Source: Cyanophora paradoxa CCMP329
Taxonomy: Eukaryota > Plantae > Glaucophyta
NCBI GenBank assembly: GCA_004431415.1
Contig: QPMI01000470.1
Span: 248,001-312,000, forward strand
DNA length: 64,000 bases
Direction: 5' to 3'
Positions within the stretch are counted from its first letter, which is position 1; each line of letters begins with the position of its first letter. This document shows positions 1-39,507 of the stretch, in pieces. The notes under the pieces are model-generated. The model was not told the DNA's origin, did not search any database, and worked only from the letters and a program-made list of their open reading frames with translations. The position numbers and the translations under genes are program-made.

Positions 1-1897
1 GGTACCAGTTGAAGAGGTGCAGGCGCCGGTTCGCGTTCGTATCCGGCCCGAACTGCTTGTTGATGACCACCTGAGGCGGGCGTGAGCGCGGGCGCTCTGG
101 CGCGCGGGGGGAGGCGGTCGGGAATCGCGGCGGGCAGCGGGCGGGCGCACCGGCGTCGGGACCGTGGCGCTAAGGCGCTGGCAGCCCGTGGTGACCCGAT
201 CGCCGCGCACCCCCTCCTGCTCCTCCGTGCCGCACCCGTGCCCCCCCTTCTTCTTCTTCTTCGTCTTCTTCTTCTTCGGCTTGGGCTCCGGCTTCTCTTC
301 GGCCTGCGCGAGCCAGCCCTCGCGCTCGAGCTCCGCCAGCTTGGCTCGCATGACGTCGAGGCTGCCCGTCTCCAGCGCCGCCTTGGCGGCCTCGTCGGCC
401 GCGTCCAGCAGCGCCTGATCCTGCGCGTCCCGCCCCATCAGCATCGCGACCGCCCGGCGGCGGGGACCGCGGGGTGGCGGCCGGGCAGAGGCGGGGGAGG
501 GGAGCGCGGGGGGCGGCGCACCAGCTCGGCGTTGTCGTGCGGCTTCCCCTTGGAAGCAAAGGGCATCGCCACCGAGCCGCAGGCGACGACGGCCGCGACG
601 CGCTTGATTGCGGCGCCCTCCGCGTCCCAGAAGAGGTCGGGCAGGTGGGCGGCGGCCAGCTCGCCGCCGAGGACGAGGCGCGTGAACGTCCCGCGCCCCA
701 TCACCGCGTCGTGCTTCCGCACCTCCCTTCCCGGCAGGCCGGGCGGGAGGGGCTTCAGGCCGTGGCAGAGGGCGCCCTGCGCGCCGGGGGCTCGGCGGGG
801 GCGCGCGTGGGGCGCGCCGGGGGCGTGCGGAGGGGCGGGCGGGCGGACCTGGGCCCGCAGGACCTCTTGGATGAAGCGCGTGTCCACCTCGCCGCCGCCG
901 GGGAGGTTGCAGCTGAGCACGAGCGTCTGCGGGGGCGACACGGCGCGCTTCGCCACCGCGACGGCGTGCAGGGGCCCGTGGGGGTCGTCGAGAAAGGCCC
1001 CCTGCAGGGCGCGCAGGGTCCACTCGGCGACGGGGCGCGGCTCGAGCCTCTTCCCCGACCGCAGCCGCAGCTCGGAGCCGTAGAGCTCGGCCTCGCGCGC
1101 CGGGGGCCCGAGCATCCCCGGAGGTACGATCCCGCGAGGCAGCTGCGGAGGGGGAGGCGCGTTCGGGCCGGGGCGGCAGCGGGCGGGCGAGAGGGGGCGT
1201 CTCGCACGTAGATCGTCTTGCCGGCCCAGCGGTGGGCCCCGAAGGACGGGAGCCCGTAGGTGTACCGCGCCAGGAGCGCGGCCTTGGCGAACGGATCTGC
1301 GGCAGGGCGTCGGGCGGGCAGCGGCGCTGCGAGCGCGGGGCGAGGAGGGGCGGGCGGACTCTTTGTGCGGAGGGGGCACGCCGGGCCCGGGAGCGCGTTG
1401 GACGCGCGCCTCTGCCCGCCGACCGCCAGCCCCGCCGCGCGCTTCTCGTTGCGCTTCCTCAAGGCCTCGGCGCGCCGAGCCGCCGCCGCCGGGTCGGCCG
1501 CGAGCGCCTCTGCCGCGGCGGCGCACAGGGCCGCGTCGTCCGCGCCGTCCGCCGACGCGGCGGCGGCCCCGGGCGGCTCCCGCGGCGGCTCCTGCTGCAG
1601 ACGCTCGCCCCTGCGCGGGCGGACGCGCCGCGGGGCCTCCTCCGCTTCCGCCCGGCCCGGCCGACCGCCGGGGCCGGGGCCTGCGCAGGCGCCGGACCGC
1701 TCCGGTTCCCCGACCAGGGCCGCCTGTGCGTTCTCGCGCCTCCGCTTGTGCGTGGCCTGCGCTGCAATGCCGCGGTGCCTGGCGGCCGCCTTCCTCGCCG
1801 CCTTGGTAGCCTTGGCCAGCTCCGTCAGCGGGATCAACTCCAGCCCCGCGCGCGCAAGCATGCCGCCGCGCGAGCTGCCGGGCCCGCCGTCCGGCAT
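1..1897 (-). CDS. Multi-exon hypothetical protein with a Lys-rich NLS-like tract; 3' end lies outside the window
   Basis: Exons 1897-1208, 1142-849, 776-522, 420-151 and 70-<1 join in phase 0 at GT..CAG introns into one open frame (...HRWAGKTIY|LPRGIVPPG...EVLRAQ|GALCHG...HDNAEL|DQALLDAA...PKPKKKKTKKKKK...|VVINKQFGPDTNANRRLHLFNWY). No family recognised. Confidence 0.6.
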
Positions 1898-2689
1898 GAT
1901 CTTCGGATGCGTGCTTCACCTGCGAAATTAAAGGCGAGGCGTCGGCGCGGGCGGCCGCAGGGCTCGAGCGAGTGGCGGCGAGCTTTCGATATCGGTCGCG
2001 TGGCGCGCGGGCTGCTCCGCGCACCTCTTCTCCGCCGCGCCCAATGCCCTAGACGAGCCAGCGGGCCTTTGCGGTGCGCCAGCAGCCGTCGGGGCTGTTT
2101 CTGCTGCAACAACGAGCTCCGTCGCGGACGCGTAGCTCGCCGATTCGTCGTTGGGTTCTGCTGGTGTCGAATCGAAAGGTGCCCAGGTATCACGCGACTG
2201 TTGCGACGTTGAGCCCCACTTGTCCGCTTAGATCGTCGCCACGGGTTTTCTTCGCGGGTACCCCCTTGGCCGCCCGCTGCCCGCAGTTAACGTTCACGTT
2301 CAGGCTGGAATCCGCTAGAGTATGTATACGCAGAGCTCGGGCGCCGGCCGCCATCCAATGATTTACTCGCGACCGGCTGCCTTTTTTCTCGTTGAATTCG
2401 AAGCCGCGAGTGCCGCTGACGAATGCGCGAGCCAAGCTCAGCCAAAAACTCGTGCGCCCTCGGTTTCATCGCCGCGGGGTGGGTTCAGGAGGCGCGGCCC
2501 TCTCGTGCGTGCATGCGCGCCCCGGACCCCCGCCCACCCCAGTGCTCGGCTCGGCAGAGACGACCGCAGCGGCCTCGGCGGATTCGACAGAAATGTACAA
2601 TGCCCGCCCGACCCGCGGGCGTCGGGCGAGCCGCCGAGCCGGCCCTGGGCCTCGCGGCCCCCTCGCCGCGCGCCGTAGCCGAGCCCGCC

Positions 2690-3589
2690 TCACTCGTCCT
2701 CGCCGCGGATCTTGCGGCGGAGCTGCGATCGCCCGCCCCGCCGGTCAGAAGAGGACGGGGATCGAGCCCGCCGGCGGGGCAGAGGGGGCGGGGGCACCTG
2801 GATATCCTGTGCGCGAAAGCGGCGGGCGCCGTCAGCCTCCGGCGCGTGCGAGGGCGAGCGCGGGGGGAGGGGGGCGTGCCTTGGGTTGGATGGTCGTGCG
2901 GCCGCGGTGGATCGCCATGAGGTTGGCCCCCTCAAAGGTCTGGATGAGGTGCATCTCGGCCGCCTCGCGCAGCGCCTCGATCGCCTCCTTCTGCCAGCGC
3001 AGGTCCTCGCAGGTGAAGCCGGCCTCGCGCCGGCGCTTGAACTCGTCCTGGGCCAGCTCCTTGACCTGCGGCCCGCGCGCCCCCGTCAGCCTCGTCCCCC
3101 CGCCCCGCCCCGCGCGGCCGCCCCGGGCGGACGCACCAGACGATCAAAGCGCGCGTAGGAGATGAGGGGATTAAACGTCTTCTGGTACTTGCGGATCTGA
3201 GGGAGAGCGGGGCCCGGTCAGGAACGAGGGAGGAGAAGGGGACGGGGGCGATGACGGGGGCTCGTTTTGTTTAGAGAGAGGGCGGCGGGGCGGACCTCGC
3301 GGAGGGCGACCGTCCCTGCCCCCGGCCCAACGCGCGCGGCGCTCAGCCGCGGAGCCGGCGGGGCCCGGCGGGGGATCGGGGCGGCGCACCGGGGCGGTAC
3401 CTGCGGGCGCGCTGGGGTGAGGCGGGGAAGGAAGGGCCGGGGGCGCGCTCGCGCTCTCGAGGCGCACCTGTGCGGCCTCTTGACGCCCCCGGCGGCGGGG
3501 GCGCTCTTCCGCGCGGCCTTGGTGGCCAGGCACCTCCTCGGCGCCTTGCCCCCGGTCGACCTCTTTGCCGTCTGCTTCATGCGCGCCAT
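2690..3589 (-). CDS. Histone H3 variant (146 aa, 7 exons); H3-like tail with a CenH3-like histone fold
   Basis: Exons 3589-3468, 3400-3390, 3315-3296, 3196-3137, 3065-2880, 2806-2798 and 2722-2690 give [146 protein letters not shown], colinear with H3 end to end. Confidence 0.93.
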
Positions 3590-3675
3590 GGCCGCCCGTT
3601 ACCCCCTCGCGGGCTCGTCGGGCTCGGCGGCTCGCCGCTGCCGGCGCTGCACCCGACCTCGCCTGCGGGAGCCTG

Positions 3676-3681
3676 TATTTA
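3676..3681 (-). promoter_or_regulatory. TAAATA TATA-like box of the H3 variant
   Basis: AT-rich hexamer in otherwise GC-rich DNA about 90 bp upstream of the ATG. The same hexamer precedes the genes at 55978, 57135, 59499 and 61280. Confidence 0.55.
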
Positions 3682-5643
3682 AGCGTCGGCCGGCGAGGGA
3701 AAAGGAGGGGAGGGGGATTGCGCGAAGCAACTCACCGGGGAGCGGCGGCGGGGAGACGGATTCGGGGGTAGAAAAGAAGGCGCGGGGGTGCCGAGGGCGG
3801 GCCCCCGGGCGGCCCCACCGGGGACGGGGCGGGAGGGGGCGGCGGCGGCCGGAGAACGGCGCGGGGCGCCCCGGCGACCCGACCCCTCGAGTCCTCCGAG
3901 CGATCGCCCCCTCTTGCGAGCGTTGGATCGACAGAGGGCTGCGGGGCGGGTGAGGGAAATCAAACAATCCGCCCTAGCGGCCCGCGGGCGCACCGGCAGA
4001 CGGTGGGACCCCGTCCGATCGATCGGGCTCGTCTTTTCGGTTCGTTTAAAAAAAAGCCCGGGCCGAATTAGTGTCCTAGGGGGGGGGGTACGTGCCACAC
4101 CGGCGCCGTACCTCACCTTTAGCTCGCGACCTCATGGAGCTCTAACCCGACCAAATCGACCCCGGGGAATCGAATGGCGGGGTCGGCGGGGGGCGTAGAG
4201 GGGGTACTGGAGCGCCAGGGAGGGGTCGGGGTTTTGATGGCGGCGCAACCTGGGCAAAGCCCGGTGAATAGCAGCCGATGGGTGCTAGTAAACGATCGGG
4301 CGGGGTTTGGGCTCACTCCGCCGCTCCGGCGACGCGCGAGATGCGTTCGAACGACGCCGGGTCGCTGCCGCGCGGCTCCTGCCGGCCGAAGGGCGCCCCA
4401 GAGGCCATCTGCGCACCCTACGATCGTACTGGGAGCGTTTGCCCGCGCGGGGCGGGCGGGAGCTCGGTGCGTTTGCGGGACGCGCCGTCGGCCACGCGGC
4501 GGCTCGCCGAGCGAGCGCGGACCGATCGGGCGTGTAGCGAGCACCGCAAAGGCCAGCAAACACGTTTCCCGGCCCGCCAGGCGTGCGACGCGACGACCAT
4601 TTGCCGATGTCTGCGGGAGTCCAGCGCAGGCCGAGCCCACGGTCAGCTTTTCATCGATCAAAGAGTGCGAGCTGCGCACCTGTGACGTCCTATGGCGGCG
4701 GGCTGCAGGATCAGGGATGCCGGTCGGTCGCGCGAGGGTACTCTTATTTCACTGGGGTACGCGTATCGCGGGCCAGTTTGCAGCAGCAGCCGTATGTGTG
4801 CAGTTTACATAAACGAGAACATGTGAGACGGGCGGCTGGGCGCCACGTCGCACCTTTCCTCGAGATTCAGGTGCTTCGGATCTCGTTCGATTTCCGCCCC
4901 CGCCGTCGCCAATTGAGCGCTTGACCTTGCGCAGGCGCAGTGCCCGGGCCCGGCGCCGGCGGAGCCCGCGGGAGCCCGAGCGCACGGGTGCACGTGCGGC
5001 CGGCATCGGAGATCAGATTTCTGCGCGCGATCCGCGTCCGTCCCGCGGCGCGTGCCGGGGGAGCTCGATCCGAGGTGCCGTGCCCGAGCTCGAGCGTGGG
5101 CGCCTGCACCTCCAGCCTCAGCTCGCAGCACGCAGCCGCAACGTGCGCGCCGCAGCTCGCACCGGCGTGGGCCGGCGTGCGCGCCAGCACGAGGCGCCAC
5201 CCCCCGATCTCTCCATTCGCGTCGGTTTGGAGGAACAGGCTAGGTGCGCAGCTGCAGGCCGCCGATGCGCACCGGCCGCGTCGTCGAGGCAGAGTAGAGG
5301 GCCGGGCGGGGGCGGGCGTGCGTCGCGTTGCGCCGCTGCGTTAGCTGCCTCGTCCCGTGCACGCCAAAAAACTCTGATGCGGTGTCTGCTTCGCAGGTTT
5401 CCTCCGGTGGGGGGCGGACGGCACGCCAGCAGTATTAGAGGCGCAGCGGACCGAGTCTCTTCTCTCGCGCTCGTTGCTGCTCAGGTACGCGCCGCTGTTA
5501 TTCGATCGTCCGGCGGCGTGCCCCCGCCCCCCTCTAGAACTCCACCCGGGCCCCGACCGCTGCCCCTGTACCGTTTATCGTTATCGATTTATTTTCTTGT
5601 CCTTTGAGCTACGTGTGCATCGTAGCTGCTTTCAATTTACCCC

Positions 5644-5873
5644 GTACCCCAAGCCGCGTTCCGCATTCCAGCGTTCCAGACCTGCCCTCGCCCCCGGCCC
5701 TGCGCCGCTGCACCGAATTGAACTCGATTCCGCCGAGGCCGTGGGTGCGCTCGCCGGGGCGCCGGGATCAGAAGGGGGGCGGAACGCTGGAATGCACGGA
5801 ACGCTCCTTACTCTCTCATACATTTAGAATTGGAATGAAGAGAGGAATGCAAGGGAATGCGGGCCGCGGGTAC
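5644..5873 (+). repeat. Dispersed ~230-bp GGAAT-rich palindromic repeat (MITE-like or hr-like), copy 1
   Basis: Starts GTACCCC..CCGCGTTCCGCATTCC and ends GGAATGCGGGCCGCGGGTAC (imperfect terminal IR). Internal IR GCATTCCAGCGTTCC/GGAACGCTGGAATGC. Five further copies in the window. Confidence 0.85.
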
Positions 5874-5997
5874 AAGATCGCCTCCCCATCTACCTGTCTC
5901 TCTAGCCCCTCTGGTGAGTTCCTTTTTCAGGCGCTAGATTCGATGAGAGGCCCGGGGTCGGTACCCCCTCCTCTCCTCTACCCCGAAGCAACGCCAT

Positions 5998-6224
5998 GTA
6001 CCCCAACCGCGTTCCGCATTCCAGCGTTCCAGACCCTCCTCCCGCCCCCGGCCCCGCGCCATTGCACGCAACCTCAACGCCGCCGGCGCCCATGGGTGTG
6101 CTCGCCGGGCCGCCGGGAGCCAAGGGGGGCGGAACGCTGGAACGCACGGAATTCTCCATACTTTCTAACACATTTAGAATTGGAATGAAGAGAGGAATGC
6201 AAGGGAATGCGGGCTGCGGGGTAC
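5998..6224 (+). repeat. GGAAT-rich palindromic repeat, copy 2 (tandem duplicate of copy 1)
   Basis: Near-identical to 5644-5873, and the similarity continues into the 3' flank (GTACAAGA...CTACCTGTC). Confidence 0.85.
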
Positions 6225-6308
6225 AAGAGCCCCCTACGCTACCTGTCCTATCCCTCTAGCTACAAAGCGAAAACGAAAGTGATCCAACCTACACCTGCTC
6301 TAGAGTCG

Positions 6309-8304
6309 CTAGAGTAAACCCGACCCGGTACGCCTTCCGCCCCCGAGCGGGGCGGCGGCAGTCACGCGGCAACAGCATCCTCGTCCTCGATCTCGAGGCG
6401 ACCGCCCCCCGCGCCGCCCAACAACTCCAACCGCTCGCCGACGGCCGGCTCGAGCCCCTCGCTCCGTTGCCGCTTGAGCGTCGGCGAGCCGTCCCTGTGC
6501 GCCGAGCGGTGGGTTAGCAGGAGGCGCGTCGGAGCGACGGGGAACGTTAACATGGTGCACCGCTTGGTCTGCTCTCCTTCCCCGCCCCGCCCCGCAACCC
6601 CCGCACCCGACCTGCCGGCGCCGCCCGGTGAGCCCCGTGCGCGGCCTCGCTCGTTGGTGGGGCGGGCGAGGCTTTTGCGGGGGCAGGAGCGGAAGCGCAC
6701 CAGAGCGCGCGGAGGTCGGCGTCGGACATCTCGAGCCACCGCTTCGCCCCCGACTGCCGCTTCCTGGCCGACGGCGTGAGGGCCGAGGACGGGGCCCACC
6801 GCCCGGCGGGGCGGGGCGGGCCGGGTGGGGCGCTCACGGGTCCGGCGGGGGCCAGCCGAGGCGGCGGGCGACGGAGACGGCCAGGGCGCAGACGGCGTCG
6901 CGGTCCATTGACGCCAGCGTCGCCGCCGGCGCCTCGCCGGGCAGGTGGCGCAGGGCGTAGCCTCGAAGGTCGTCCGTGTTGCGCTTGAAAAAGGTCCTGG
7001 AGGCAAACGCCCGCTTCCTGCACGCGGGCGGCCGTCGGAAAGGGCGAGAGAGCCGCGCGGCCGCGCGCACGCGGGGGGGAGGAGGGGACGCACGCCAGCT
7101 GGACGTCGACGACCGTCCCCTCGTCGCCCTCGGCGGACCTGCACAAAAACTCCAGGGCGTCGGCGGGCGCCGCGCTGCCGCCCGAAGAGCGCGCGGGGCG
7201 GAGGCGCACATTTCGAGAAAGAGCGCCGGGTTCGGATCGCTGCCCCGCACGCCGTCAGCCAGCGGCCACCGGGCGCGCGCCCGCGCCGCGGGGCCCGGGG
7301 GGCGCGCGCACCAGTGGGAGACGTCGAGTTCGCGCTCCCTGCAGAGGCGCGCGGCGAGGGTGCGGAGGGAGGCGAGGTCGCGCAGCCCCGCCGCCTGCTC
7401 CTCGGCGCCGAGCGAGGCCAGGAGCCTCAGCAGCCGCGAGCAATCCCGAAAGGCGTCGCTCCTGACGGCCGCCGGCCGCGCGCTGCGAGGCGGGCCGGTT
7501 GGGCCGATCGGGCCGGGCGCCGGGCGCTCCTCGGCGGGATGCGGGGCCGCACCTGGGACCGGAGAGGGACGTGGACGGCTCGGCGTCCGCGGGGGGCGGC
7601 GAGGTGGCAGGCGGCCCGATGCCGCCGGCCGGCGGGCGCGGCGTCCACGCGTCGGGCTCGAGGATGTGGCGCACGGCCGCGCGCTCGATCGTCCGGGCCG
7701 TGCGGAAGATCCGGTCCATCGAGAGGCAGCGCTGCAGGAGCGCCGCCTCCGTGAAGACGTGCTTCCTGGAGGCGCACGCGGGGCACCACACGCCCGGCGG
7801 CGCGAGCGCCAGCTCGCCGATGCCGGCGACCAGCGCCGTCCCGCGCGGCATCTCGGCGAGCGCCCGCAGCACGGCCGGCACCAGCAGGGCGCGGCAGGCT
7901 GCGCGGACGCGCGGGCGCCCCGGGCCCGGGCGGCACGCGTCAGCGGCGCCACCGAGAACGAGCGCGCGGCAGGAGATCTAGAGGCGCGGGGTCGGGCGCG
8001 ACGCGGCGCACCGAGGTCAAGGGCCGACTCCAGGACGACGGCACACGCGGCGCGTTGGCGGGCAGCGAGCCCGTCGCCGCGCTCCTGCCGCATCGGAGGT
8101 CGATCACAGCACGCCGGGCAATCGCTCCGACTCGCGGTTGCGCACCGAGCCCGCGCCGACCATAGCTGCGATCCATTGGACGGAGCGGGCGTGCGCCTCG
8201 ATCACCCGGTCGCCGTCCGAGGCTTCCTCGACGGATTCCAGCCCGAGGAGGGCCACGGGGTCGCCCAGCCCCGGGCCCCAGCAGTTGGGCCGGGGGCACA
8301 TCAA
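6309..8304 (-). CDS. Probable multi-exon hypothetical gene (CxxC motif WCPAC); frame interrupted, possibly a pseudogene
   Basis: Protein-like segments in shifting minus-strand frames (GDPVALLGLESVEE..., VLRALAEMPRG...WCPACASRKHVFTEAALLQRC, AFRDCSRLLRLLASL, DLRGYALRHL, KRWLEMSDADLRALW) separated by GC-rich GTGCGC..CAG introns. The exact model is unresolved. Confidence 0.4.
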
Positions 8305-9836
8305 TTACCCTTAAAAAAGCTTTTTTTTGCCACAGTAGGGACACGCATCTTGGCAAGCAGCACCCGCTCGGCCTCCGGACGTGAGCGCCGGCGCGATCAT
8401 CTCCCTAGCCCTCCAGCGTTGCTAAAACGAACCGTGCGCTTCGCTGCGCCAGGTCCTTCGTCGCCAACGCACAGGCATCGCGCCCGCATCGGGCGGGCGT
8501 TGCGCACCCGCGCGGGGGCGGGCCGCACCAACCTCTCCGATTTCGGTCGGTCACAGCGAAAAGCACGTGCGTCGTGCGCCAGCCCCAGGCGCCGGCCCCG
8601 GACCACCACTCGCAAGCTGACGATAGGCGGCGATCGGGGCGGCAGAGTCGAGGCAGCGAGTCGAAGCACCCGTATCGGCTGCAGGACCATCGTGCTCGAC
8701 CGCCTGCCGGTGCGCGGGCCCCGCGCCGCGCTCTTGCCCGACCGGGCGGCCGGCCGCGGCGCCGGCGCGCGGGGGCGTGCTTCCGCGCGCTGCCGGCGGC
8801 GCGGATCCGGATCGGCGATCGTGCCCTTATGAACGCGCTCTCAGGTCTGCGCTGCCGCAGGCAGGCCGCCGCCGGTCCAGCGGGCGCTTTGCCGTCCGAC
8901 GAGCTCGAGGTGCGTGCGGACACGAGCCGCGAGCCTAGAGGGCGCTAGCGCTAGCCGTGGCTGCAGGGCCGGCGCCCGCGGCCACCCTATCTGGCCGCTT
9001 CGTGCACTAACGCAGACCTCGGGAAAGACAGGCCCGGCGGCGCGGATCCTGGGGGGGGGGGTACGCGTGCACACCGCGAATCCAATCCTAGGCTCGACCT
9101 AGCTCAATTGCTGTGCAGCTTCGCTGAGGTGCATACATACATCTATGCAAATACACATATATACATATCACGATTCTTCGTCGAATGAAATTAACCTCGC
9201 ATTATCTGATCTCAGTGGAGCCGCTGATCATGAGCGGAAATTTCGGTCACGGAGTCAGCTCGGCCAACTTTTTCACGATGAAGAAAGCAGATATCGACAT
9301 GTACGCATCTTCAGAGTTAGAGTCGGAGATGGGTGCAACTCGTAATTGGAGAAGAGTCCCACTCGGATCCGTTTGGTGAGTGCATTCGTTTCGATTTCCA
9401 CATTTCAGTTCCATGTCTCTAGCCGTAGCTAGATATAGATCTACCTAGACTAGTACTGTTCACCGGGATATAAGGCCGAACCACACCGTTTTTTTGTCAC
9501 GTGCATGCATTTCCCGGCCTGAATTCGTGCTCTTGTCGATAATTTTTATGATGTTAATGCATTTGACAAAATCCCACGAATCTCACTGCCCCTGATCTAT
9601 TTTTTTCAAAAAGGCGGTCAACATCTGATCTAAATTTGCTCATAGCTCGCGATCGCATATATACGCGTACGCACACGTAAATATATAAAAAAGGTACACG
9701 TTACGTAATAACTGACGGCCGCGTCTTTTTTCACAGGAGCCGCCGTTCCAGCTTCGCAACTTCAGAGCCGGGCTCCATCCCCGCTGATCAAAAGTCGTTC
9801 ACTGAAGAAGTTTCGTCGAATGCACCGCAGTCAAGC

Positions 9837-12800
9837 ATGGACGCGTACGGTGGCGAAGCCAAAGCTCGTCATGATCAGGTCATCGAGCGCATCATCGACC
9901 AGTTCGCACAGGAAGTGGTATACCTCGGAGTGCCCAACGATGCGCCCAGCTCCGCGGTGGACGACGAGCTTCGCAGCATTGTTGGGGCAAAGAGTCGCCT
10001 CTTTCGCTCTCTGGTTCTTCGAATTTTCACGGTTACGATTATCGTGACAAGATCCAACCTCGACAAGGCCCAGGATCCCGACGACGAGGACGCTTTGAAG
10101 GAAGCTCTCGTGTCCTCCATCTCCTCGACAGCTGAGGAAGACTTGAACAAAGCGCTGAGGGGCTGGTGTCGTCAGTGGAAGGAATCCGGATCGGCCTTCG
10201 GCCTCCTTGTCGTTCCGTTGAGCCATTGCATCAAGGTTTTCACAGCTCTTCTGGGACACAAGAATGCCGAGGAGCTCGGATCGACTCTCTCCAAGCGGAA
10301 GGACACACTCTTCCACGCCGTGTACACGTCAGTCGAAGCGCTTCCAAAGTCGCCAGTCCAGCCTACACCCAGCCTCAAAGCCTTCAAGCGGGTGATCGTG
10401 TCTGGTCGCTTGGGAACCAAATACGAGGACGATGCGGTAACGCTGTCGTACCTTTTGAGCATTCTGGGTGCTCTTGATCATGATCAGTAAGCGCCCTTTG
10501 CTTCTTCATGCACAAACAGCTAATATATATAAAGATGTAATATGCTACGATTTTCTGATCTACCCTCTGCCGTATCAGATTCATGAATCAAGGCGCAACT
10601 GGAAGCAAAGATCAAGGCCCATTTTCTCAAGATCAAACAACCGAGACGAAGTTCGCCGGGGCTGAAACGGTACGCGTACCCACGTACAACTGATATACAA
10701 TTGCAATTCTTTGCTTCCCACCGGCAAGGACTGATCGTAACTTTCATCGATCAGGTAACTGCAACGAGTGTCGGTCGACGTCTGCATCACTCGGGCTGGG
10801 ACAGGGTCTCGGGGTCTCTTTTACTCGAGAACCTCGGTTTGACATCATGGCCCGGCAATCTGGAGGCGCTGACGGCTCCTTGTGATGTCCGGGAGCTCAA
10901 ATTGCATCTCAACTATTCCGGCTCCCGCTCGAGCGCAGAAGACCTGTTTCCTTCGGAGCAACTGGTCAAACTGGTCAACTTGGAGAATCTGTCCATCAAA
11001 TGGCACAATCCGCATCTCAACTCTCTCCCCTCCGGACTAACGAAACTCGATGCTTTGCGGGTACTGGATCTAAGCGGAAGCCTTGGTGCGCGGCGATCCA
11101 TATCAAATAATGCCACGTGCAAATCCGCAACCATAGTATTCGATATTTATCTCAGTCTTTTTTGCGCGCAAGCCTTCTTAAGCAGAAGTCACGCCATCGT
11201 TTCTTCATGTTGGTCCTAATTAAACGACCGCGGCCTGCGTGCTCAGATTGCAAGCGAGATTCGAACGAACCATTCGAAGTGATTTGCAACCTCACATACT
11301 TGGAGCAGCTGGACATTCCCGCGTGCAACATTGAAAATGTTCCGCCAAACATCGGGAATCTGGGCCGTCTTCGACGTTTGAACCTCAGCTCTAACAAGAT
11401 CGGTGCGATGTCCTGGCTGAACGCTCCACACACAAATTCAACATTTTGCATTCGACCGCTTCACACTTCGGCACTGACACAGTGCAACAGATGCACAATC
11501 TTTTCCAAGCCAGTTCAGCAAGCTCGTCAATTTGGAGCATCTGTTCATGGACATGAATGACCTTCACAGTGTTCCATCGTCGATACTCTCGCTCTCGAAT
11601 CTAAAAGAGCTATCGCTTTTTAACTGCAACCTAGGTGCGTTCATATCGTTTTTGTTTAATGCGTATTCGAAGGGGGGGGGGTGTGTGTGTGTGGGGGGGG
11701 GACCTTGCAATCGGGTAAATCACAATGAGGGCTGACTCGCTTTCGAATACGGCAGACACAGAATCGTTCCCAACAGATCTAGAACTCGGCAAGCTCGTCA
11801 ATCTGAAGTCGCTGAACCTGGACGGTAACAACTTCAACGCTGTTCCTTCTTCGGTTCTCTCCCTCTCGAACTTGGAGGATCTATCGCTTCGTGATTGCAA
11901 GCTGCGTGCGTGGATTTCGATTGCGTGGCCTCCCCCGTGCCCCGTCGACAGAATGCGCTCTAGATCTGCGTTTATTTTTCTGTTTGATTATATTTTAATG
12001 CTGCTTTCGTGTAATTAGAATCCATCCCAAGTACGATCGGAAACCTTGCAAAGCTCAAGCGCCTGGATATCTCGAGCTCCGTGGGAGCAGGTTCGTCAAG
12101 GAACAGCCTGAGTACGTGCAAAGCCGTCTTGTTCCTCGCAATCGCTTGCTCACGTCGGATTCAGAGTCGGTTCCTAGCGAGATTGGGGATCTCGTCTGCT
12201 TGGAAGAGCTTGGGTTGGCCGACACACAGCTTGCGGGTCTACCCTCTCACATCGGTCAACTCAAGAAACTGCGCCGTCTTTTCCTCCAGCGGAACAAACT
12301 GAGTGCGCGCGCAAATTGAAACAAACATGCAGCCGTTTTTTTTGACACGACTTTGCGTCCTCGAGCAGCCCTGGATTCGATTCCGTCTGAGATCGGCAAG
12401 CTCAGCAATCTTCAGCTGTTGAATCTCTCGGAGAACAGGCTGGGTAGATTGTCAAATCGTCAACTGCTGAGCATTCTCCGCAAAAACCGCTCTCTCATTT
12501 TCGTGATACGCAGGTTTTGTCCCAAGTGCAATCTGGACCCTCGAGAGCCTGGTGGAGCTGTGGTTGGCCAATTCGCAGATCACGTCCGTTCCCCCACTCG
12601 TCGGGCATCTCAAGAACCTGCGCCGTCTCGTGCTTTCGAGGAACAAACTTGGTTAGTTGAAACATGGGGATAAGCTCCCAGCTGCAGCCATCCGTTTGTG
12701 TGTCTAACTCACTGCACCCTCTGCGTCGACCAGACCGGCTTCCCGGCGAAGTAGGACAGCTTGCGAACTTGGAGTCGCTCAATCTGAACAACACGGGGCT

Positions 12801-15800
12801 CGCAAGCCTGCCGCCCGAGATCGGCCGGCTGGTCAAGCTCCGCATCCTGGATCTCTCTTCGAATCGATTCGGTAAAAACACACTAGAGCTTTTATCCGGG
12901 CTCTGATTCCGTTGCTGACCGTACCCTTTTTCGGCCCAGGATCGGTGCCGCCCGAGGTGACTCTATTGACATCGCTTCAAGAGCTCCACGTGCAGAACAA
13001 TGCTGTTGCGGTCTTGAAGAAAGAAGATCGTAATCACGCACCACACTGGGGCGAGATGTACCTGTCCCGTCCCAAGCCTCGGCATCCCGTGGTCCGCGCA
13101 TGCGCACAGGGTTCTGCTCTAAAATATTTGCCAATGCTAATCGATGTGCACGTGCGCAGATGGTCGCCCTCGAATCAACTGACATCGTCAAGTTTATGGC
13201 CGACAGAAACATTCCTGTCGACCTCGCCCTTCTGCCTCTGTCGAGATTCCAACTGTACAGTGATCCGGCCGTCGGTTCCGCACTCAACGACGAGCTGCTC
13301 AAGAAGATGCAAGAGTACAGGCGCGCAGCGCTGGACCAGGTGGGCCGCAACCCTGCCCTGACGCTCCCCCGTGCACGCAATCGGGCACGCGCACGCTCGC
13401 CGCACGTGCGCCTCCAAACCGCTTGCATGTGGCTGCAGACGTCCGAAGCGCCCGTTGGCGCTCCCGTTGCCGGAGAGCTCGATACCATGCCTGCAGCAAC
13501 CGAGCCGGAGGCGAGTGCAAGGCGCCTGCGCTAACGCGAGCTCTCGGGTTCTCGATCTCACATCTGACCGCAAAGTGCAGGCCCCATCATCCGCATCGGA
13601 GCCGGCGCCCTGGGACGCAACCGGAGCTGCTTGTTCTATGCCGCAGCCCCCCTCGACCCCGATCGCAACGGGCGTCGATGGCACGCCGGCCATCGCCTCA
13701 CGCGGAGAACCCGACGACTCCTCCTTGCCGACGGCGCACGTTGGCACGGCGACTCGCATCGAGCCCAACGTGGGGGGCGCAGCGGAGCGTGCCGGCACGG
13801 GCGCCCCGCAGGCCGCGGCCCGCAGCCAGCCCGAGCGCGACGCCGAGAACGACGCAAACGCGAGCGTCGATCGCGGCGACGCGGTTGTTGAAAAGGACCC
13901 CGTCGCTCACTGGACACGTACCGTCGAAATCGGGAGGGAGCTGTTGATCAGATTCAAGCAAGCCTTGCTCGACGACCCAACGCCGTGCGGCTTGTTCAGA
14001 CAGCTGGAGGAGGGCGCGCACACCTTGGATGGTGGCGCCCACCTGCAGCTCGCCCTGGACGATTGCTTCCTGCGTTTTCTCTCAGAGGTGGATCCGACCA
14101 TCACACAGCTCGTGCACCTGCGGTTCTGTACCCCGACCGGGACCAAGTCGAAGATGCCCGGCTCGACGCTGGCCGAGGGTGAGCAACGTGGGCCCCTCGG
14201 TGTTCCGCATCTTTGCAAAGTGCTGGTGTTGCTAGGTGCGCCCTACGTGTTGACCGTTTGCGTTGCACCTTCAATCATTACGCACAACTAAAACCCCACT
14301 GCGCGTGCAGAGGCCGCTCAGGAGACCCGTTCAGGCAACGATGACGCGGATTCGCAGCTGGAAGACGCCCTGCACAAACTGGCCAAGCTCGTTGAGCTAC
14401 GTGCAGAGATTCTCCTGCGACGCACGGCCGCAAGCATGGGCTCGCTCGCCTTCAGCAACGACAAGGAAGCCAACGCCATCGATCCTCTCCTGCAGCTCAA
14501 CGAGAGCGACTGCGCCCTCGCCCACGAGCTCGTGCATCAAAAGCTGCTACGCATATCCGTGGACATCTCCATTTTCATACTTCAGAAGTGGCAGAGGCAA
14601 GCCCAATCACATGCACTTCGCTTGACGGGCCCTCCAGGTTTGTGCACGCATTCACGAGGATCCATGCACCATTCTCAAGTTGACCGCTCCCAGGTTTTGT
14701 TTCTGGGAATACCGGCATTGATTTTCACTACGATGTACCCGAGGGCATGGAGGGTGCCTTGTGCTCGGAGCTCCTGGACGCCGAGACTATTCTGAGGCAC
14801 GCTTGCGCTGAATTTCGCTTCTTCATCCCCTGCCGCTCTGCAGCGCTGTCAGAAAATCTGCCCGTGCGAGACGACCCGATCCAGTCGAAACCACCTGCAG
14901 GCAACCCGACGCCCTGCACCTGTATTTCTCGATGCACCCCTTGCGATGCCAGCGGTGCGCCTACCGAGCCTCAAGCCGGTGCGTTATTTCCACACAAAAC
15001 TCATGTTTGAAGGTATTCGTATCTATGCATATGCACCTCACGGAACGAGGGTCGGGCAAAAAACGCGTGTCGCTTCAAGCGTTTTCTAATAATTAAAAGT
15101 AGTATAATGAAAGAGACACACACAACTTGTAATAGGCGACAATCCCCCCTATGCCTCTGATCTGATTCCGGCGCCATCCTCAGTGGCGTACGAAATGAAG
15201 ATGCAGTTTGGCAGCGATCAAAAAGACCACGCCCTTGTTCACGCGTGGCGAGTCGATCAAAAGGCCAAGCGGGAGCTGGTAAAAAAAGTCTGCCTTGAAC
15301 TTCGGGCACGTGGTATCCCCATCGGGAGGAAATACGTTTCAATCACTCGAGTTTATTTCGGCACCGCTAGCACCCAGTGCGTCCTAGCTTTTTTTCCATC
15401 CCCTCTCTTCTCGCCTTGTTTTCCGTGGACAGTTCACAAAGGATTTTTCTGTGCACGCACACAGGTCGACAGCAGATTACGAAGGGCAGCTCAAAGATTT
15501 CCGGCGGCAGATCAACAAGATAAACAAGATTATCGGCGCACATCGAACAAATCTGAGCAAGGAATCAACTGCGCTCACTGACCTACAGAAGAGGTTTGTT
15601 CATCTTCCTCTTTGTTTCGGTTCTTAGTTTCGGAATATATTACTAGTGTGAGGGTATTCATCATCCCTCTCCTTCGGTAGCTCTTTCCTAATGCATTCCC
15701 TGTGCACAGTGTCCCAAAACCGACGAAGCCGATCTTGACCCTGATGAAGTCTCTGGAGAAGAAAATTGGCAAAATCCAGGATAAGATCAGCAAAGCGCAA

Positions 15801-18800
15801 CAAGACAAAGCTCGGCTAGAGGCAGACGCGGCCGCGATTGCAGTTCGGACGCGCAGCGGCACCGGCATTGGTGCCTCTACCTCTGCACCATCCTCGGCCG
15901 CGCAGTCGGCTGCACGAGCACCCGGTGCTGGCACATCTCAAGCAACGCCTTCGGTGAATGCGGCGAACGTGGCAAGCGCCAACGCAAACAGCAAGAAGCG
16001 CCAGCTGGAGGTGAGCCTTGACCAAATGTTCCTTTTGGTGTCCAACCTGAAGGCTGAGTGTCGAATCGCAGGGACAGAATGGAGAGGCCATTGCCGGGGA
16101 GACACCAGCAAAGAAGCCGGCTCTGAACGAGTCGACTTCGCGAGTTGTGCAGGTCAAGGGCAAGGCCGAGCGCAAGCAGCATGCGCAGGAGAACGCGGCC
16201 CCTGCTGTGGCTTCTCAGCCTGCAGCTGCAGACGGTGTCCCATCGGGATCCTCCAGCCACTTGACTTCGATCGTGAATGCCGCTCCAGCTGCAGGCGCAA
16301 CACAACTACATGGTGCTTTGGGATAGATAATCGCCTCGGAATCTTTCTTATTCAGTTTGGTGGCTGTGCAGCCGTGAATCTCGAGGCTGCAGTTGGAAAC
16401 ATAGGAGGCACCGGAGGAGACGCTCTGAACTTTAATAATTCAAGGGCACACAACAACTCTGCTCCCCCAGGTCCGTATGCAACCCTAGAATTTTAAATCG
16501 ACGACCGTGATTGACGATTGGTTGGCCCAACGTCAACCGCAGCACCCAGCGAGCCTTCGCAATCATCCGCTGGCGCTGCTTTGACCGCGGGCTCCAAGAC
16601 CAACGCCGAGGCGGATATTGTCTCGCAATCGCCGCCAACATCGTTTGACAATGCTGACCCTATGAGTCTCGATGATCATTCCAGTCCAGCTGGCGAGGAT
16701 GCAGCAGCACCGGAAGACGTCGACGCTATCGATTCCGAGTCCAATGAGACCCCCCCCGCGACTTGTGATGAGGACCTGCACCCCTCCGGTGCGTGCTATG
16801 CTGGATTAGTCTCTGGATCACATAACCCTTTTTTGGACGTGATGTCGTCCTTCTGACTTGACAGTGCACTCGTGCACCTTTTTGGCATCAGATCGCTGTT
16901 TGGCGCTTTGCCACTACGATGTCAAGTCCTCCGGCGACGTGTTCGGGGGGGGATTCTATCGTCTGTCGCGCGAGGCGTGTGCGTACGCAGTGCCGCTCGC
17001 AAAGGTGAAGATTCGGGGCGAAGGACACGTGTACGATCCAGTGGATCGAGAGACATGTGTCAATTGCACGATTCTCACGCAGAACCAAGCTGCATACGCT
17101 ATCCTCAAAGACCTCTCCCAAAACGACGCCGTCGACAGCAATGAGGTGCGTGTGCAACACGACAATACCAACTTTTGCCAACGAGATAGTTTGAATCGTA
17201 GACTAAAGCTCTGCTTTTTGATCAGGCTGCATAGCATGTTGTAGTGTTGCAGTGTCTCAGCAACTTGAACTTGACTCTAAATTTCCTTTCCGAGCAGAAG
17301 AAGGCAAACCGAGAAACGAGATTGGAGTCTTTCCAGCTCGGCATCTACCTGGACCCTGAGCTGGCCGGAACGGTCAATCAGGTTTACAAGACGGTCGGCA
17401 CTCACGATCTCTGTCTACGTTCGTCGGCGGACGCTTCGGAAAGAAAGCTTCGGAAAGACCCCTCAAACGAGAAGCGCCACCTTTCGTTCTCTGCAACGGA
17501 CCTCCTCGGGGTTCTTCGGAAGCAGCTGGGTAATCCGAGCGCCCTTGACAAGCTGGAGGCCAAGGACATCGTGCTCGAGCCATACAGTTTTCTTTGCAAG
17601 TGGCCAGAGAGCAAGCACTGCTCCTGGCGGTCGCGACCCGACGAGAATGGACTGTTCCATCGAGTTGGAACGCACCGAAATCCGAAGACGTGGTTCTTTC
17701 CTGGTGAAAAGTACCGCCTTACAACACAGGCGAAATTGGGTTCGCCGCTTGCTCGTCCTTAAAGTGCTTCGTGCACGTAGCCCGCACGCTTATGCAGCCA
17801 GCATGTACATGTGCAGGCGACAAAGATAGCAGCGTGACACCCGTGAACAAGCTCGTGCGCTGCCCGGCGGTTGATGCCGGACTCATCCAACCGGGCGAGC
17901 GGCTCCACTGGAGCGACCACGACAAGCTGACTCACATTGCGCAAAACGGACGTCGGTACCCCGCTCTCATCAACACGGACATGACCGACTTTCTTGTGCC
18001 TTGCACCCAAGAAGAGTGGAATTTGCGGTTCCCAAGCTGCCCAGATGCGGACGGGGGTGGGAGTTTCGACCCTCCTGGCGATCTAAAGGTGCGAGCATGC
18101 GCGAGCTGCATAGTTTGTTGACAGGCCTGAAAAGCCACCTATTTTTGCCGTTTCTCGAGCTCACCGGCACCCTTGAGCTTATTTTGTATCCGTAGGATTG
18201 GATTGCGGTCCTGAACAAGCCCAATCCCGACGTGATCAGCCTGTATAGATCGTTCAACGGAGAGACAGTGGTCTCAGCAATGGCGCGTCTCGGCCCGGAG
18301 ACAAAGGACAAGATCTTGAATGCGGCTCTGCACGGCCAGATTGTGGCAAATCTGGGCTACGCTCCGCTGCCCCGGGAAGACCTCCAAAGGCGTGTGTTGG
18401 CAGAGCTGGCCCGCTGCGTCTACATCAAGAACATCACACAGAGCGGCTGGGGTGGACGTGCGAGCTTGTTGCCTGGAGGGTGAATGCCAGCTTCTATGCA
18501 ATTGCAAACTAACCACTATTCCAAGCTGCAATCGTTTTGGTCATTTGCAAGCTAATTATATAACTCCCGTGCAGGGTACCGGCTGCAAACCCCGCCTTTG
18601 ACATCCACGAGGGCGTGGAGCGGGCGCTGGCGGTGGCAGAAGAGTGCGAGGATTTCCAGAAAGTGCTGGAGGTGTGGGAGCGCTGGCGGAAGAAGAGAGC
18701 AGGAGACCCTTCGTACGTCTAGCTTCTCCCAGCATCTCCCATGTAAATCCTGAGAGAAACCGGCAGGGACGAGAAAAACCCCATTCAGCAGCTGCGAGAT

Positions 18801-21800
18801 CGTTGGATCTGGAACCGCGATGCACGTGCACCCACGTCCGGCCCATCGCCTGCGGAGGCAAGCGGCACCTCGCCAGATCTGGAGCAGGCAAGCGACGAGC
18901 AACCTCCAACCGCGGTCCCGCCGGCTCCCGGGCCGTCGAGCACGAGCCCCAGAGAACGATTCGTCCTGCCCCAGACCTGGGCCGAGCTCGAGAAGATGGC
19001 AAGGGGCAAAGGAGTCTACCAGGAGAAGGCCAAACGGATCATCCAGGCATTTACCTCCGCGTGCGACAGCACAGACAAGAAAGAAGATGTTCGGAAGGCC
19101 GTATACTCAAAGTTTATCGCCTGGGCAAACAGGAGCAAGGAACTTCTCGTTCGTCATGAGCTGGATATGACATGGGACGACCTCGGTACGTATTAACAAC
19201 TCTATCTATGTATGCACACATAGATACGCCGATACACATTTTCTTTTACATTAACAATGTTTTCTTGCATGGGAGCGATTTCGAATGTACGAATCGGTAC
19301 TTATCATTTTCTGCTTGTGATCGTAAACAGTTGGCGAAGACATGCGAATTGCGAAAGCATATCTGCGAGACTTCGAATTTCGCATGTTCCACCCCGATCC
19401 AAAGAACGAGGTGCAGCAACTTCTCGCGGGATTTGTTTTCAGCGGTCCCGGGGTATGCACGTGAGATTTTCCTCGCGATCGGTCATGCCATCGTGTTCGA
19501 ACGTCTTTTTTAACATGCATGCTTGGACAACAGGGATGCGGAAAGACCGAGCTTGCGCTTCAGATGGCAAGGAGATTGGGGGACAGGGTTTTCTTCATGA
19601 ACATGCCTCTGTCAGGATCGAGGAGCCACTTCGTGCGTGACAAGTACATCTCATACATCGTGTTTAAAGCGCATACATGTGTGCATTCTCTAGAATATCG
19701 CACAGTTTTACACTTTTTTGAATTTTTTTGATACGAGGGATGTGAGCTAAACATAGTATTACGCTCGCTAATTATATAATAATATGGTGCATTTGCACGT
19801 AAAAGCTTGAAGAGGCTTCATTTCGCGTTTCAAATGTAACTATGCCGCTGCTGCAGGCCTCCATGGATGGACAGATGTTTGGTGCTTCGATAAATGTCAT
19901 GAAAGAGATGCAGCCTGGCTTCATCCTATTCGAGTACGTAAGACTGAGATCCAGAGCTCCCACGCGGCGCGTACCTTCGAATTCTGACATGACATGTGGA
20001 ATGCGCAGGGAAGCAAATGGGCTTTTCAACGGAGATGACAGCACCGGTCTCGTGTCTCTGGTGAGTTTAATTTTAGAAGCCTTGTAGGAGAACATGTACA
20101 TGCATACAGGCAGTGATGCTTTTTTGTATACCCGCGATCCAGTTCAAGTCGAATGTTCTTGGAGCCGAGTCGGGCAATATGGATCAGTACCTTCGCAACA
20201 ACAGGGGTTTGCTGATCATCATGACGACAAACTACCCGTGGCTGATGGATGAGAACATGGCCAACAGCAAGTTGCACCCGTGCGCGCTCCATGTCCCTCT
20301 TGTGGGGGGCACATTTCCACAGCTTGCATTTTCAGATCTCTGTGATTACAATAGCTCAAGAAAATTTACAAATCTTTTTATATTACAGGAATCGTTTCTA
20401 AGCTGCCATTTAACGATTCATTTAAATGGATCTTTATATTTAAAACACGCACACATATCATATCCACTTTATGTTTAATTAGGCTCCCATTCGTGTTGCC
20501 ATAAACATCTTTGATCGGGATGCACAACGCAGATTGCGTTTCGGCAGAGTGGCAGGGGAGACTGCCGCCACATCATACGCTAAATGGGCCACTCGTTTCA
20601 ATCAGGGAGAGCCAAAATTCTTCATCGATCTGTCATTGTTGGACTGGAAGGCCTTTGTGGAGTCGGTTGAGGGGTTCCAAGGCTCCATCCAGGACGCCGA
20701 TGGATTTGATGTTGAAATCAGCTCAAGGGTGGTCCAGCTATCGGTCAAAAGCCACGCCTGCATAGCTGCCATGCTCGATTTTGAGGATGTCTACGGCGAG
20801 TGGGAGTATGGCGCTGGCTTTGAGAAAATTCGCGTGTCGTTGAAGCACATGCAAGCTGGCCTTGAGAAGTACGTGGATACCATCAAGCGAACGCGAATTA
20901 TGGAGGCCCCCCCTCCAGTCAACGATACAGACAAGGTATTTTTCAGCCTTTGCTCGGAGCGGACCGTTGCTGAATCGAAAACCGCTTCATTCTAGATCTG
21001 ACGCTACGTTTTGCAGACTGCAGCTGCCGGGGCAAGCCCCGAGGCAGTGTCAGAAGACTCGAGGTCGAAGGTGGCATCGCCGTCGTCAGATTCGTCAGTG
21101 GACGCCGAACCGGCTGCAGTGCGCACAGTTTGCAGTTTAAAATAATTCGAGACAAGTCTCCTACCGATTTGAAACGGTCGCGCTCCGGTCGCAGTTCGAA
21201 ACCCCGGAAGTGGACGACGCAGCTCTGCTCACCGACCTCCCTGGTCCGGCACCCGAAGATCTCGGCGGCGACAGTGTCGACGACGAACCGGCGGGCATTG
21301 CGAATGTACCTATGCACGTGGAGGGCGCCTCTGCACGCTCTGATGCGATGGAAGGCGAGGTGCTCCTCAATGCAATCGTCAACATACATAGCCTAGTAGT
21401 GCTCGAGCTCGAAAAAGCTCGCGCCAATTTCTTGCCTGATCCCGGCCCCACCCCTGCCCCCTCAGAACGACATTGCAAATCTCAACCATGGCCAGGACGT
21501 TGACGCAGCCGGCGCTTCTCTCCAAGAGGCCCCGCCGGCGGTCCCACCGACATTGGCATCGTCGCCGGCGGCAGAGGCGCTGTCGGACGGTGAGACGTCG
21601 GCATCGACGCCGCGATCGCCAGAATCGTCAGACGAGTCGTCCGATTCGGACGACGAGGGCAGCGGTCCCGAAGACCCTCCCAGCGGGCCCCAGCAGCCAG
21701 CTTCGTCCGCGGGGACCTCGAGTGGCGGCGCCGATGGGGACGATCACGGACGTGTCGATGCATATGGCGGGCCGAGCGCCGGCGGCCCTCCCGCGCCGTC

Positions 21801-34571: not shown

Positions 34572-35289
34572 ACTCGATCGCGGAGAGCGCGGGCTCGGCC
34601 CCCGTTGCACGGGAGAGCTTGTGTGCCTTCAAAAAGGATCTGGAGTCGTTCCTGGGGCGCCGGGGGAAGGCGCACGACCGTGGGCAGCGGACCCGGTGGC
34701 AATCCTGGGCTGAGATCGTGCGTCTCTGCGTTTTTTCGACCGCAGCTTTGACCGTAGCGTCATCGTTGCAGACTGGCTGTGCACATGGCGCGGCGCCGCG
34801 CGCAAGCCGGAGGCCCAGCTGCAGCTGCAGGGCCCTGATCGCGGCAAGCTTTGAGGGCTCTGCAGCTGCAGCGGGCGAACCACGGCATGCACGAAGCTGC
34901 GGCCTGAGCCTGCGGGAGAAGCGCGCTCGGCGCGCGTGCGGGGGCGAGCGCGCAGGACGCCCGCAGCTATCCCGACAGCGCGTGCCGCTGCCAGCTGCCG
35001 CTGCACGCTTTTTAGATCGCCCGGCGTGTGCGATTGCGGCGCTGCACCTGGGATCAGCCTCGCGGCCGACCGTGAGTGCTCCCAGCTTCAGCCTCGAACT
35101 CTGCAGCCGCCACGGTTTTGTCCGATTGCACGCCGCACGGAGATCGTGCCAACTTTGCCGCTGTGCGCGTCGGTCGCGCGCGGCACGTAGTGTGCGCCCC
35201 GCTTTCTGACCCTCGATTTCAGGTGCCTGCGCCCTCGTCCCTCGCTGCCGGGCTCTGCGTGACGGGCGGCGGATGCAGGCTCTGCGCGC

Positions 35290-38055: not shown

Positions 38056-38218
38056 GAGCGCGGGGGCGGGTGTGTCAGGTGGTTCAGAAGCGCCTTCTAC
38101 ATCCTTTCCCCTAGGATGTTTAGTGATACTTGTTTAGTGGTACTTTTGCAGTCTGCTTCCAGTATTGTACCATACACGTGCGCGCCGCTTAGTGGCTGAT
38201 ATCTCAGTTTTAATCCGC

Positions 38219-38457
38219 GTACCCGCCTTCCACGCCATCGCCTCTCATTCTCTTTCATTCCTTTCTTAATTCCAATTCTAAATGTATGAGAGAGTACGGA
38301 GCGTTCCGTGCGTTCCGGCGTTCCGGGCCCCTTACCCCCGGGCGGCCCGGCGAACGCACTCACGGGCGCCGGCGGCGTCGAGTGTGATGCGGTGGAGCAC
38401 GGCCGGGGGCGAGGGCAGGTCTGGAACTCTGGAATGCGGAACGCGGTTTTGGGGTAC
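38219..38457 (-). repeat. GGAAT-rich palindromic repeat, copy 3
   Basis: Reverse-complement match to 5644-5873, with GTAC at both ends. Confidence 0.82.
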
Positions 38458-38500
38458 AGCGCGAGGGTTGACCACGCGGCGCAGAGCTCGCACGGAATTT

Positions 38501-38606
38501 GCACGAATCCGACTGCGCCCGCTTGCAAACTGGCCTCTCCCGCCCCTATAAAGGCGGCCCCGCCGCGCCACACCTCATTCTTTGCCTCGCTTGCCTCGCT
38601 GAAATC
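38501..38606 (+). promoter_or_regulatory. Shared promoter cassette GCACGAATCC ... CCTATAAA ... CTCATTCTTTGC
   Basis: TATA at 38547 and Inr-like CTCATTC about 27 nt downstream. Closely related cassettes have TATA at 48671, 49855, 52221 and 54883. Confidence 0.75.
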
Positions 38607-38855
38607 ATGGAGCCGACCGCCGCCATAACCGCCGCCCCCGCCGCCCGCCCGGAGGCCCAGCCGGGCGCGACGGCCCCGGGGACGGCGTCGCGCCCCGCGG
38701 TCTGGACCGCCGAGCGCGTCGCGCTGCTCGTCGAGGCCGCCGGCCTCCCCGCCGAGCCCGAGCTCGACGCCCTCATCCTCGACGCGCTGGCGAGCTTCGA
38801 CTACGAGGCGGAGTGCGCGGGGGGCGGCCTCTCCCGGGAGTCCCGCTCCCTCTAG
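38607..38855 (+). CDS. Small orphan protein, MEPTAA family copy 1 (82 aa)
   Basis: Intronless ORF after TATA/Inr. Paralogs at 52274 and 54936 share VWTA.RVALLV..AGLPAEPELDALILDAL..FDYE.EC. Confidence 0.75.
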   Translation: MEPTAAITAAPAARPEAQPGATAPGTASRPAVWTAERVALLVEAAGLPAEPELDALILDALASFDYEAECAGGGLSRESRSL

Positions 38856-39421: not shown

Positions 39422-39489
<68 letters not shown>

Positions 39490-39507
39490 ATATATATATA
39501 TATATAT
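39422..39507. repeat. (TA)n microsatellite
   Basis: About 40 TA units with one CG interruption. Confidence 0.97.

Follow-up and report, generated by a model that had tools for sequence, protein, structure and literature searches.

Lysine 9 is among the most conserved residues of histone H3, and its replacement by arginine has mostly been studied in engineered mutants. A gene at positions 2,690 to 3,589 of a 64,000-nucleotide stretch of the Cyanophora paradoxa CCMP329 genome (contig QPMI01000470.1; this whole stretch is called the window below) encodes an H3 that carries the replacement naturally, in a near-canonical tail joined to a fold with features of centromeric histones. The locus raises the question of whether such a histone serves a mobile element, the centromere, a virus, or the host itself. 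With a probability that we put at about 55%, it is a host-encoded, lineage-specific, noncentromeric H3 variant whose nucleosomes would be looser and could not be methylated at K9. Cyanophora is a glaucophyte, a freshwater alga and an early-branching relative of plants, and such an organism, with a spliced H3 that is K9R by nature and a sister type that is K27R, would allow a test of whether K9 and K27 silencing lift separately.

Gene structure and splicing

The gene lies on the minus strand, from an ATG at 3589 to a stop codon that ends at 2690, and has seven exons separated by six short introns (67 to 99 nt), five with GT-AG and one with GC-AG splice sites. Its product of 146 amino acids matches letter for letter (100%) the C. 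paradoxa gene model EP00741_Cyanophora_paradoxa_P014444 (P0001). The features, in the order of transcription, are as follows.

3994..4610, minus strand: upstream transcribed stretch seen in RNA-type contigs, with one 67-nt skip at 4248-4314
3468..3589, minus strand: exon 1, holding the start codon and a tail close to that of canonical H3 (changes T3M, R8K, K9R, K18R, Q19C, and K37R)
3401..3467, minus strand: intron 1, 67 nt, GT-AG, joined in runs X15 and X18
3390..3400, minus strand: exon 2, micro-exon of 11 nt, its letters between the RNA-type joints as predicted
3316..3389, minus strand: intron 2, 74 nt, GT-AG, interrupting the codon of G44
3296..3315, minus strand: exon 3, 20 nt, supported in run X18
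3197..3295, minus strand: intron 3, 99 nt, GT-AG, joined in run X18
3137..3196, minus strand: exon 4, last part of alpha-N and first part of alpha-1; residues 57-68 are rewritten (R63S, K64Y, Q68D)
3066..3136, minus strand: intron 4, 71 nt, GT-AG, joined in all four RNA-type runs
2880..3065, minus strand: exon 5, alpha-1, 10-residue insert, F84W, alpha-2 (T107A), and loop 2 (A114R, K115G)
2807..2879, minus strand: intron 5, 73 nt, GC-AG, joined in runs X15, X17, and X18
2798..2806, minus strand: exon 6, micro-exon of 9 nt, its letters between the RNA-type joints as predicted
2723..2797, minus strand: intron 6, 75 nt, GT-AG, joined in three of the four RNA-type runs
2690..2722, minus strand: exon 7, last part of alpha-3, then the stop codon

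Contigs from four runs of three studies, compared with positions 1-9000 of the window, joined all six introns at exactly the predicted exon joins: intron 4 in every run, introns 5 and 6 in three of the four, introns 1 and 2 in X15, and introns 1 to 3 in X18. Exon 1 is spanned by record 18 of the RNA-type contigs of X19. None of these runs is on record as RNA; we judged them to be of RNA type because neighboring genes are spliced in them too, and their contigs demonstrate splicing without giving an expression level. A processed DNA copy is a remote possibility as the source of the joins, the joints in DNA runs having been judged from the 15 rows listed of 255. Runs X21 to X24 contained almost no words of the locus and weigh neither for nor against expression. 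Within exon 5, the RNA-type contigs carry two sets of substitutions (depths of about 19 and 6) that match no retrieved protein model, which suggests two further transcribed paralogues. Thus, the splicing that the preliminary description had asked to see confirmed is found, micro-exons included, and its provision that the gene might be unexpressed does not apply.

The upstream stretch at 3994..4610 is possibly the 5' untranslated region of the H3 gene; it was duplicated together with the gene, and the models P0002 and P0003/P0004 start in its homologue. The high GC content and short introns of the H3 gene are consistent with C. paradoxa, since the genome has a high GC content and a mean intron length of 86 bp (PMC6704402, section 3.1).

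A conserved tail on a diverged fold

Comparison with a canonical H3 (P0111) bore out every item of the residue list drawn up in the preliminary description: the 10 additional residues in loop 1 (between positions 73 and 84), T3M, R8K, K9R, K18R, Q68D, F84W, and T107A. The tail lysines K4, K14, K23, K27, and K36 are retained. Beyond that list, we found Q19C, K37R, a rewritten 57-66 segment (R63S, K64Y, L65A, P66R), A114R, K115G, and A127R. We take R63, K64, and K115 to be DNA contacts and positions 110, 114, and 127 to belong to the H3-H3 interface. The likeness to H3 is not a matter of chance, as the Pfam Histone domain (PF00125) is matched with an E value of 2.6e-28; the best PDB, Atlas, and Foldseek matches are all H3. 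In an AlphaFold model of low confidence (pLDDT, 62.8), too weak for claims about interfaces, the alpha-1 helix is lengthened and takes up most of the insert.

The changes are unevenly distributed. The tail is identical to canonical H3 at 36 of 44 positions, versus 43 of 76 for residues 57-132 (Fisher's test, P = 0.005), and the sister type P0038 shows the same pattern (38/44 versus 41/76; P = 0.0003). The two subtypes differ from each other at 26 of the 76 fold positions, and conservation of the tail in both of them while the fold diverged points to selection on the tail. The net charge of the K9R H3 is +18, versus +20 for canonical H3.

A subfamily found so far only in Cyanophora

Protein searches recovered the signature of the subfamily in at least nine C. 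paradoxa gene models on at least seven named contigs, a lower bound: P0001, P0002, P0003, P0004, P0267, P0061, and three accessions of P0038. P0038 shares R8K, keeps K9, and carries K27R; thus, the sister types P0001 and P0038 have each lost a different repressive lysine, and this K9R/K27R pair is the most striking point of the finding. The gene model of P0267 does not allow its tail to be recovered. P0003 and P0004 are decayed copies without a start, and DNA contigs with a deletion over 3577-3632 and substitutions matching these two models probably derive from them. The models P0002 to P0004 have upstream DNA in common over about 1 kb or more. In run X1, DNA contigs matching 1.7-20 kb exactly have depths of 134-171, versus 67-75 for contigs of the diverged paralogue; the roughly twofold difference is a hint of two near-identical copies of this block, although the depth of a contig is a poor guide to copy number. 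We attribute it to segmental duplication, because a third of the C. paradoxa assembly, which is likely haploid, is duplicated (34.7 Mb; PMC6704402, section 3.1).

In two trees, the three main types (P0001, P0267, and P0038) formed one clade (support of 99/93 and 99/92), which was joined as sister by the H3 of L038. Support for this pairing (89/78 and 88/78) falls short of the starred threshold, and both branches are long. L038 is a Nucleocytoviricota contig with genes for an NCLDV capsid, VLTF3, and RNA polymerase. These trees were built from 49 and 28 hand-picked rows of 177 distinct folds, with intron-retaining and fused models left out, and their bootstraps had not settled. AU tests rejected no alternative placement of the family, neither with a CenH3-like row of unverified status (P = 0.39) nor with near-canonical H3 (P = 0.20). 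The histone-fold phylogeny proposed in the preliminary description supports the clade and leaves its sister branch weak, and no verified CenH3 is among its rows; the family did not join the three unverified CenH3-like rows that are.

Close relatives from outside the species were absent from the matches listed in three word-limited protein searches (best 120 of each), from the best 150 of 14,471 matches in the 50%-representative library, and from the viral contigs searched. Metagenome contigs (5 of 64 parts, best 80 matches) yielded only sequences that were 64-67% identical, none of them a close relative. Other glaucophytes contributed no orthologue to the matches listed from the protein searches and the 50%-representative library, and the family may therefore be of recent origin; as far as these sequence comparisons reach, it is found so far only in Cyanophora. 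A search of the literature that left most subscription journals aside found no published description of Cyanophora H3 variants, and none stands in the available text of 10.1101/2025.03.28.645958 or 10.64898/2026.07.28.741200. The available text of the preprint 10.1101/2021.11.30.470311 does not name Cyanophora, and its supplements could list these genes.

Proposed function

The gene has the makeup of a mark-resistant replacement variant, being an intron-bearing paralogue with spliced transcripts that lacks a repressive lysine. The variant would be translated and built into nucleosomes with H4. Its TAKRS tail would not be methylated at K9 or bound by HP1-type readers, and signaling through K4, K27, and K36 would stay. 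Loss of R63, K64, and K115, together with the changes at 110, 114, and 127, might weaken the grip on DNA and alter H3-H3 pairing. Weaker DNA binding and the lack of K9 methylation would favor open chromatin, much as Arabidopsis H3.15 (K27H) does for K27, where it removes H3K27me3 (PMC10426802, available text). H3K9 methylation in Cyanophora was not found in the literature searched, where the histone-mark passages available concern other species. As for its origin, the variant may have arisen from an intron-bearing host H3 gene, and segmental duplications, of which this genome has many, may then have multiplied it.

A more elaborate version, which we regard as speculative, is that Cyanophora has retained an H3 lineage, possibly acquired from a giant virus or carrying a fold of CenH3 type, which has a nucleosome surface of its own (10-residue insert, altered H3-H3 interface) and has split into paralogues that each escape one mark (K9R and K27R). 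If this were true, the K9R/K27R pair would be a natural set of two tools, one for shutting down each heterochromatin pathway.

Alternative explanations

The main idea of the preliminary description was that the histone is cargo of a currently mobile element, which it shields from K9 silencing. The dispersal of copies over at least seven contigs, the upstream DNA duplicated with the gene, the twofold depth of the exact-match block, and a Ulp1-type protease at 27 kb would fit such an element. However, 225 Pfam scans of open reading frames in the window (97 + 40 + 88, partly overlapping) detected no transposase, integrase, or reverse transcriptase domain, and positions 1-9500 contain no terminal repeats around the gene that resemble those of an element. 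The six introns of the gene are spliced in RNA-type contigs, as are its neighbors, which are GC rich and intron rich like typical host genes; the duplication and the depth carry little weight in an assembly of which a third is duplicated anyway. Only 2.7 kb of the window lies to the left of the gene, so that a very large element around it is possible; overall, we find an element-borne histone very improbable. We give equally little credence to a transcribed but decaying duplicate under relaxed selection, in which K9R would have no function. The broken sister copies P0003/P0004, the alteration of many fold residues that are conserved in other H3s, and the failure to find an orthologue outside the species among the matches listed are what decay would leave. 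Against it stand the open frame over seven exactly spliced exons, the much stronger conservation of the tail than of the fold in two subtypes that have themselves diverged, and the nearly canonical net charge.

Another alternative is that the gene encodes a centromeric histone, in which a natural tail swap has joined a fold derived from CenH3 to the tail of an H3, and which works beside an ordinary CenH3 or in its place. Loss of Q68, F84W, and substitution of T107 are usual diagnostics of CenH3, and all of them are present here, as is a longer loop 1. To the eye, two segments of the sister types (residues 63-68 and 84-87) look like rice CenH3; chimeras of H3 and CENP-A have been engineered and are present in the PDB; and the AU test did not reject the grouping with a CenH3-like row given above. 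The CenH3-like fold of the preliminary description stands as a set of residues, and a centromeric role for it is not supported. Of the 26 rows in alignment A2, 11 from outside Cyanophora likewise pair a canonical tail with W84 and a longer loop (8 of these are near-copies of one type, and rows were picked for such features), and the recurrence of this signature without a divergent tail means that F84W and a longer loop are not specific to CenH3. No CENP-A chain was named among the best 60 of 174 PDB matches of exon 5 or among the 50 Foldseek matches listed; the low-confidence model, with its longer alpha-1 helix, also speaks against a CENP-A-like loop. CenH3 is defined by a highly divergent, unalignable N-terminal tail (PMC4359364, available part), in contrast to the tail found here, which aligns with that of H3. 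Additionally, van Hooff et al. list five other Cyanophora sequences as CenpA in the available part of PMC5579357 supplement 3, none of them from the K9R family. The N-terminal part of one, CPAR010062, combines a short unalignable tail with the Q68A motif of green-algal CenH3s (same supplement), so that a separate CenH3 candidate exists in the species, though from an older assembly. The models in the available part of that supplement come from a 2010 assembly, and the absence of the K9R family from the CenpA set may therefore be a gap. The alternative offered in the preliminary description, that this is the host's own unusual CenH3, finds little in its favor given the alignable tail, the separate candidate, and the recurrence of the signature on canonical tails; and because the gene is multicopy and expressed, neither of the provisos attached there (an unexpressed gene, a sole host CenH3) applies. 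We consider a centromeric role unlikely, and somewhat less so than an element or decay.

Least unlikely among these alternatives, though still doubtful, is a derivation of the subfamily from a giant-virus (Nucleocytoviricota) H3 through an endogenous insert, with introns gained later and the gene kept by the host; such an origin could be compatible with the same antisilencing function. The sister position of L038 in both trees would agree with it, and the L038 H3 shares L65A, F84W, A98M, and T107A with the family; moreover, C. paradoxa is reported to contain inserts of giant viruses (PMC12344493, section 9), genes transferred into its genome acquire numerous introns (PMC6704402, section 3.1), and the window holds D5-like primase-helicase and TFIIB-like open reading frames. 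However, the sister position is weakly supported and competes with the unrejected placements, and the L038 H3 has retained K9 and lacks the insert in loop 1. Similar substitutions are seen by eye in angiosperm CenH3s, which implies that the sites shared with L038 change repeatedly. The virus-like reading frames lie 38-52 kb from the H3 gene, and viral genes in C. paradoxa tend to be methylated and silent (PMC12344493, available part), whereas the H3 gene is spliced. G44 is the one residue missing at this point from three older H3-like models of Cyanophora, whereas P0038 carries one residue more; as intron 2 splits the codon of G44, indels at this very position hint, indirectly, at a shared host intron. 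From these comparisons, a host origin is tentatively preferred over a viral one.

Comparison with known H3 variants

Among known histones, a close parallel to the proposed host variant is in Arabidopsis, where H3.15 and H3.10 are likewise lineage-specific host paralogues tied to the erasure of a repressive mark (PMC10426802, available text). Unlike H3.15, the Cyanophora gene loses K9 (K27 in the sister type), and its fold is far more diverged, being 43/76 identical to canonical H3, and carries a 10-residue insert. The expansion of H3 in Stylonychia likewise comprises many paralogues in one protist that differ at modification motifs (PMC2939574, available text), in a different lineage, whereas the Cyanophora variants have the CenH3-like fold signature in addition. 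Nucleocytoviricota and mirusviruses have single H3 genes in which, as in Cyanophora, a near-canonical tail sits on a diverged fold (PMC9145170 and PMC10132985, available parts), but the region of the Cyanophora gene is host-like and the gene's six introns are spliced, and the H3 of L038, the weakly supported sister branch, keeps K9 and is without the insert. CenH3/CENP-A shares the longer loop 1, the loss of Q68, F84W, and the T107 substitution, and differs in that the Cyanophora tail is 36/44 identical to H3, the insert is 10 residues long, and there are at least nine gene models; green-algal CenH3s keep motifs at 60-66 and 110-115 that are rewritten in the K9R H3. For protist genomes in general, loop-1, F84W, and T107 signatures alone can misname a histone as CenH3.

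The environmental H3s P0077 type, P0082, P0083, and P0094 have the same architecture, a canonical tail with W84 and a longer loop 1, but do not group with the Cyanophora family in the trees; P0083 carries K9Q and P0082 K27R. The P0077 type itself (P0077, P0080, P0081, P0093, P0097, P0100, P0101, and P0106) has an almost fully canonical tail, six additional residues in loop 1, F84W, and T107S, and showed no close match in the viral contigs. The giant-virus H3 at L038:10001-10420 carries F84W, T107A, H113F, and an altered K27 context and lies beside capsid and VLTF3 genes. In Cyanophora itself, four further H3-like models with divergent tails keep F84, and CPAR010062, the best CenH3 candidate, is fused to a second sequence (PMC5579357 supplement 3, available part). 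The H3 variant repertoire of this organism seems, from its sequences, unusually large. The fusion in CPAR010062, whose second part we take to be MCM-like, is probably a gene-model error.

Other features of the window

Downstream of the H3 gene, a spliced gene at 1-2250 (minus strand) has a diverged paralogue (about 90%) in DNA and RNA-type contigs; its Atlas match to acyltransferase clusters (score, 0.91; 124 of 256 features) is a weak lead. At 6137-8400 (minus strand) lies a spliced orphan gene with at least eight introns, Cys-rich motifs, and no Pfam match. The region from 9000 to 21000 is a low-GC island (about 50%) with a multiexon LRR gene at 10.6-12.9 kb and an AAA motif at 19.5 kb, and it is not an assembly chimera, since one DNA contig spans the island and its GC-rich flank. 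CpG depletion does not set the H3 region apart from the rest of the window.

The Ulp1/Peptidase_C48 SUMO-protease domain lies at 27414-29231 (plus strand), with no transposase found nearby; proteases of this type are often carried by DNA transposons. A MITE-like repeat of about 250 bp occurs six times, at 5644-5898 and 5998-6247 (minus strand) and at 38198-38458, 48204-48470, 52744-52955, and 55562-55816 (plus strand). Most copies have short GTACCC...GGGTAC inverted ends and internal inverted segments; the repeat has no Rfam match and is not tied to the H3 gene. A tandem array of a 134-bp unit occupies 35289-37956 (about 20 copies, 92% matches, about 82% GC), directly to the left of the virus-like region. 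A link between this array and the H3 gene, raised in the preliminary description, was dropped, as the array is 2.7 kb long, lies 32 kb away, and nothing connects the two.

Two long unbroken open reading frames on the plus strand encode a D5-like primase-helicase (41573-45571; DUF5906, PHROG primase) and a TFIIB-like protein (55771-56946). Neither has a close relative among the viral contigs, and the stretch from 38 to 57 kb is possibly a fragment of an endogenous giant virus. A mirusvirus was considered and set aside, as the window contains no marker and the available text of PMC10827195 does not name Cyanophora. A match to the Borealin N terminus at 39674-40678 (minus strand) falls below the cutoff (E = 6.7e-5) and is probably a coiled-coil artifact. 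An (AT)43 run occupies 39422-39507, and a gene-start module is duplicated locally at 52144-52696, 54806-55342, and 38496-38835, the copies being 86-89% identical.
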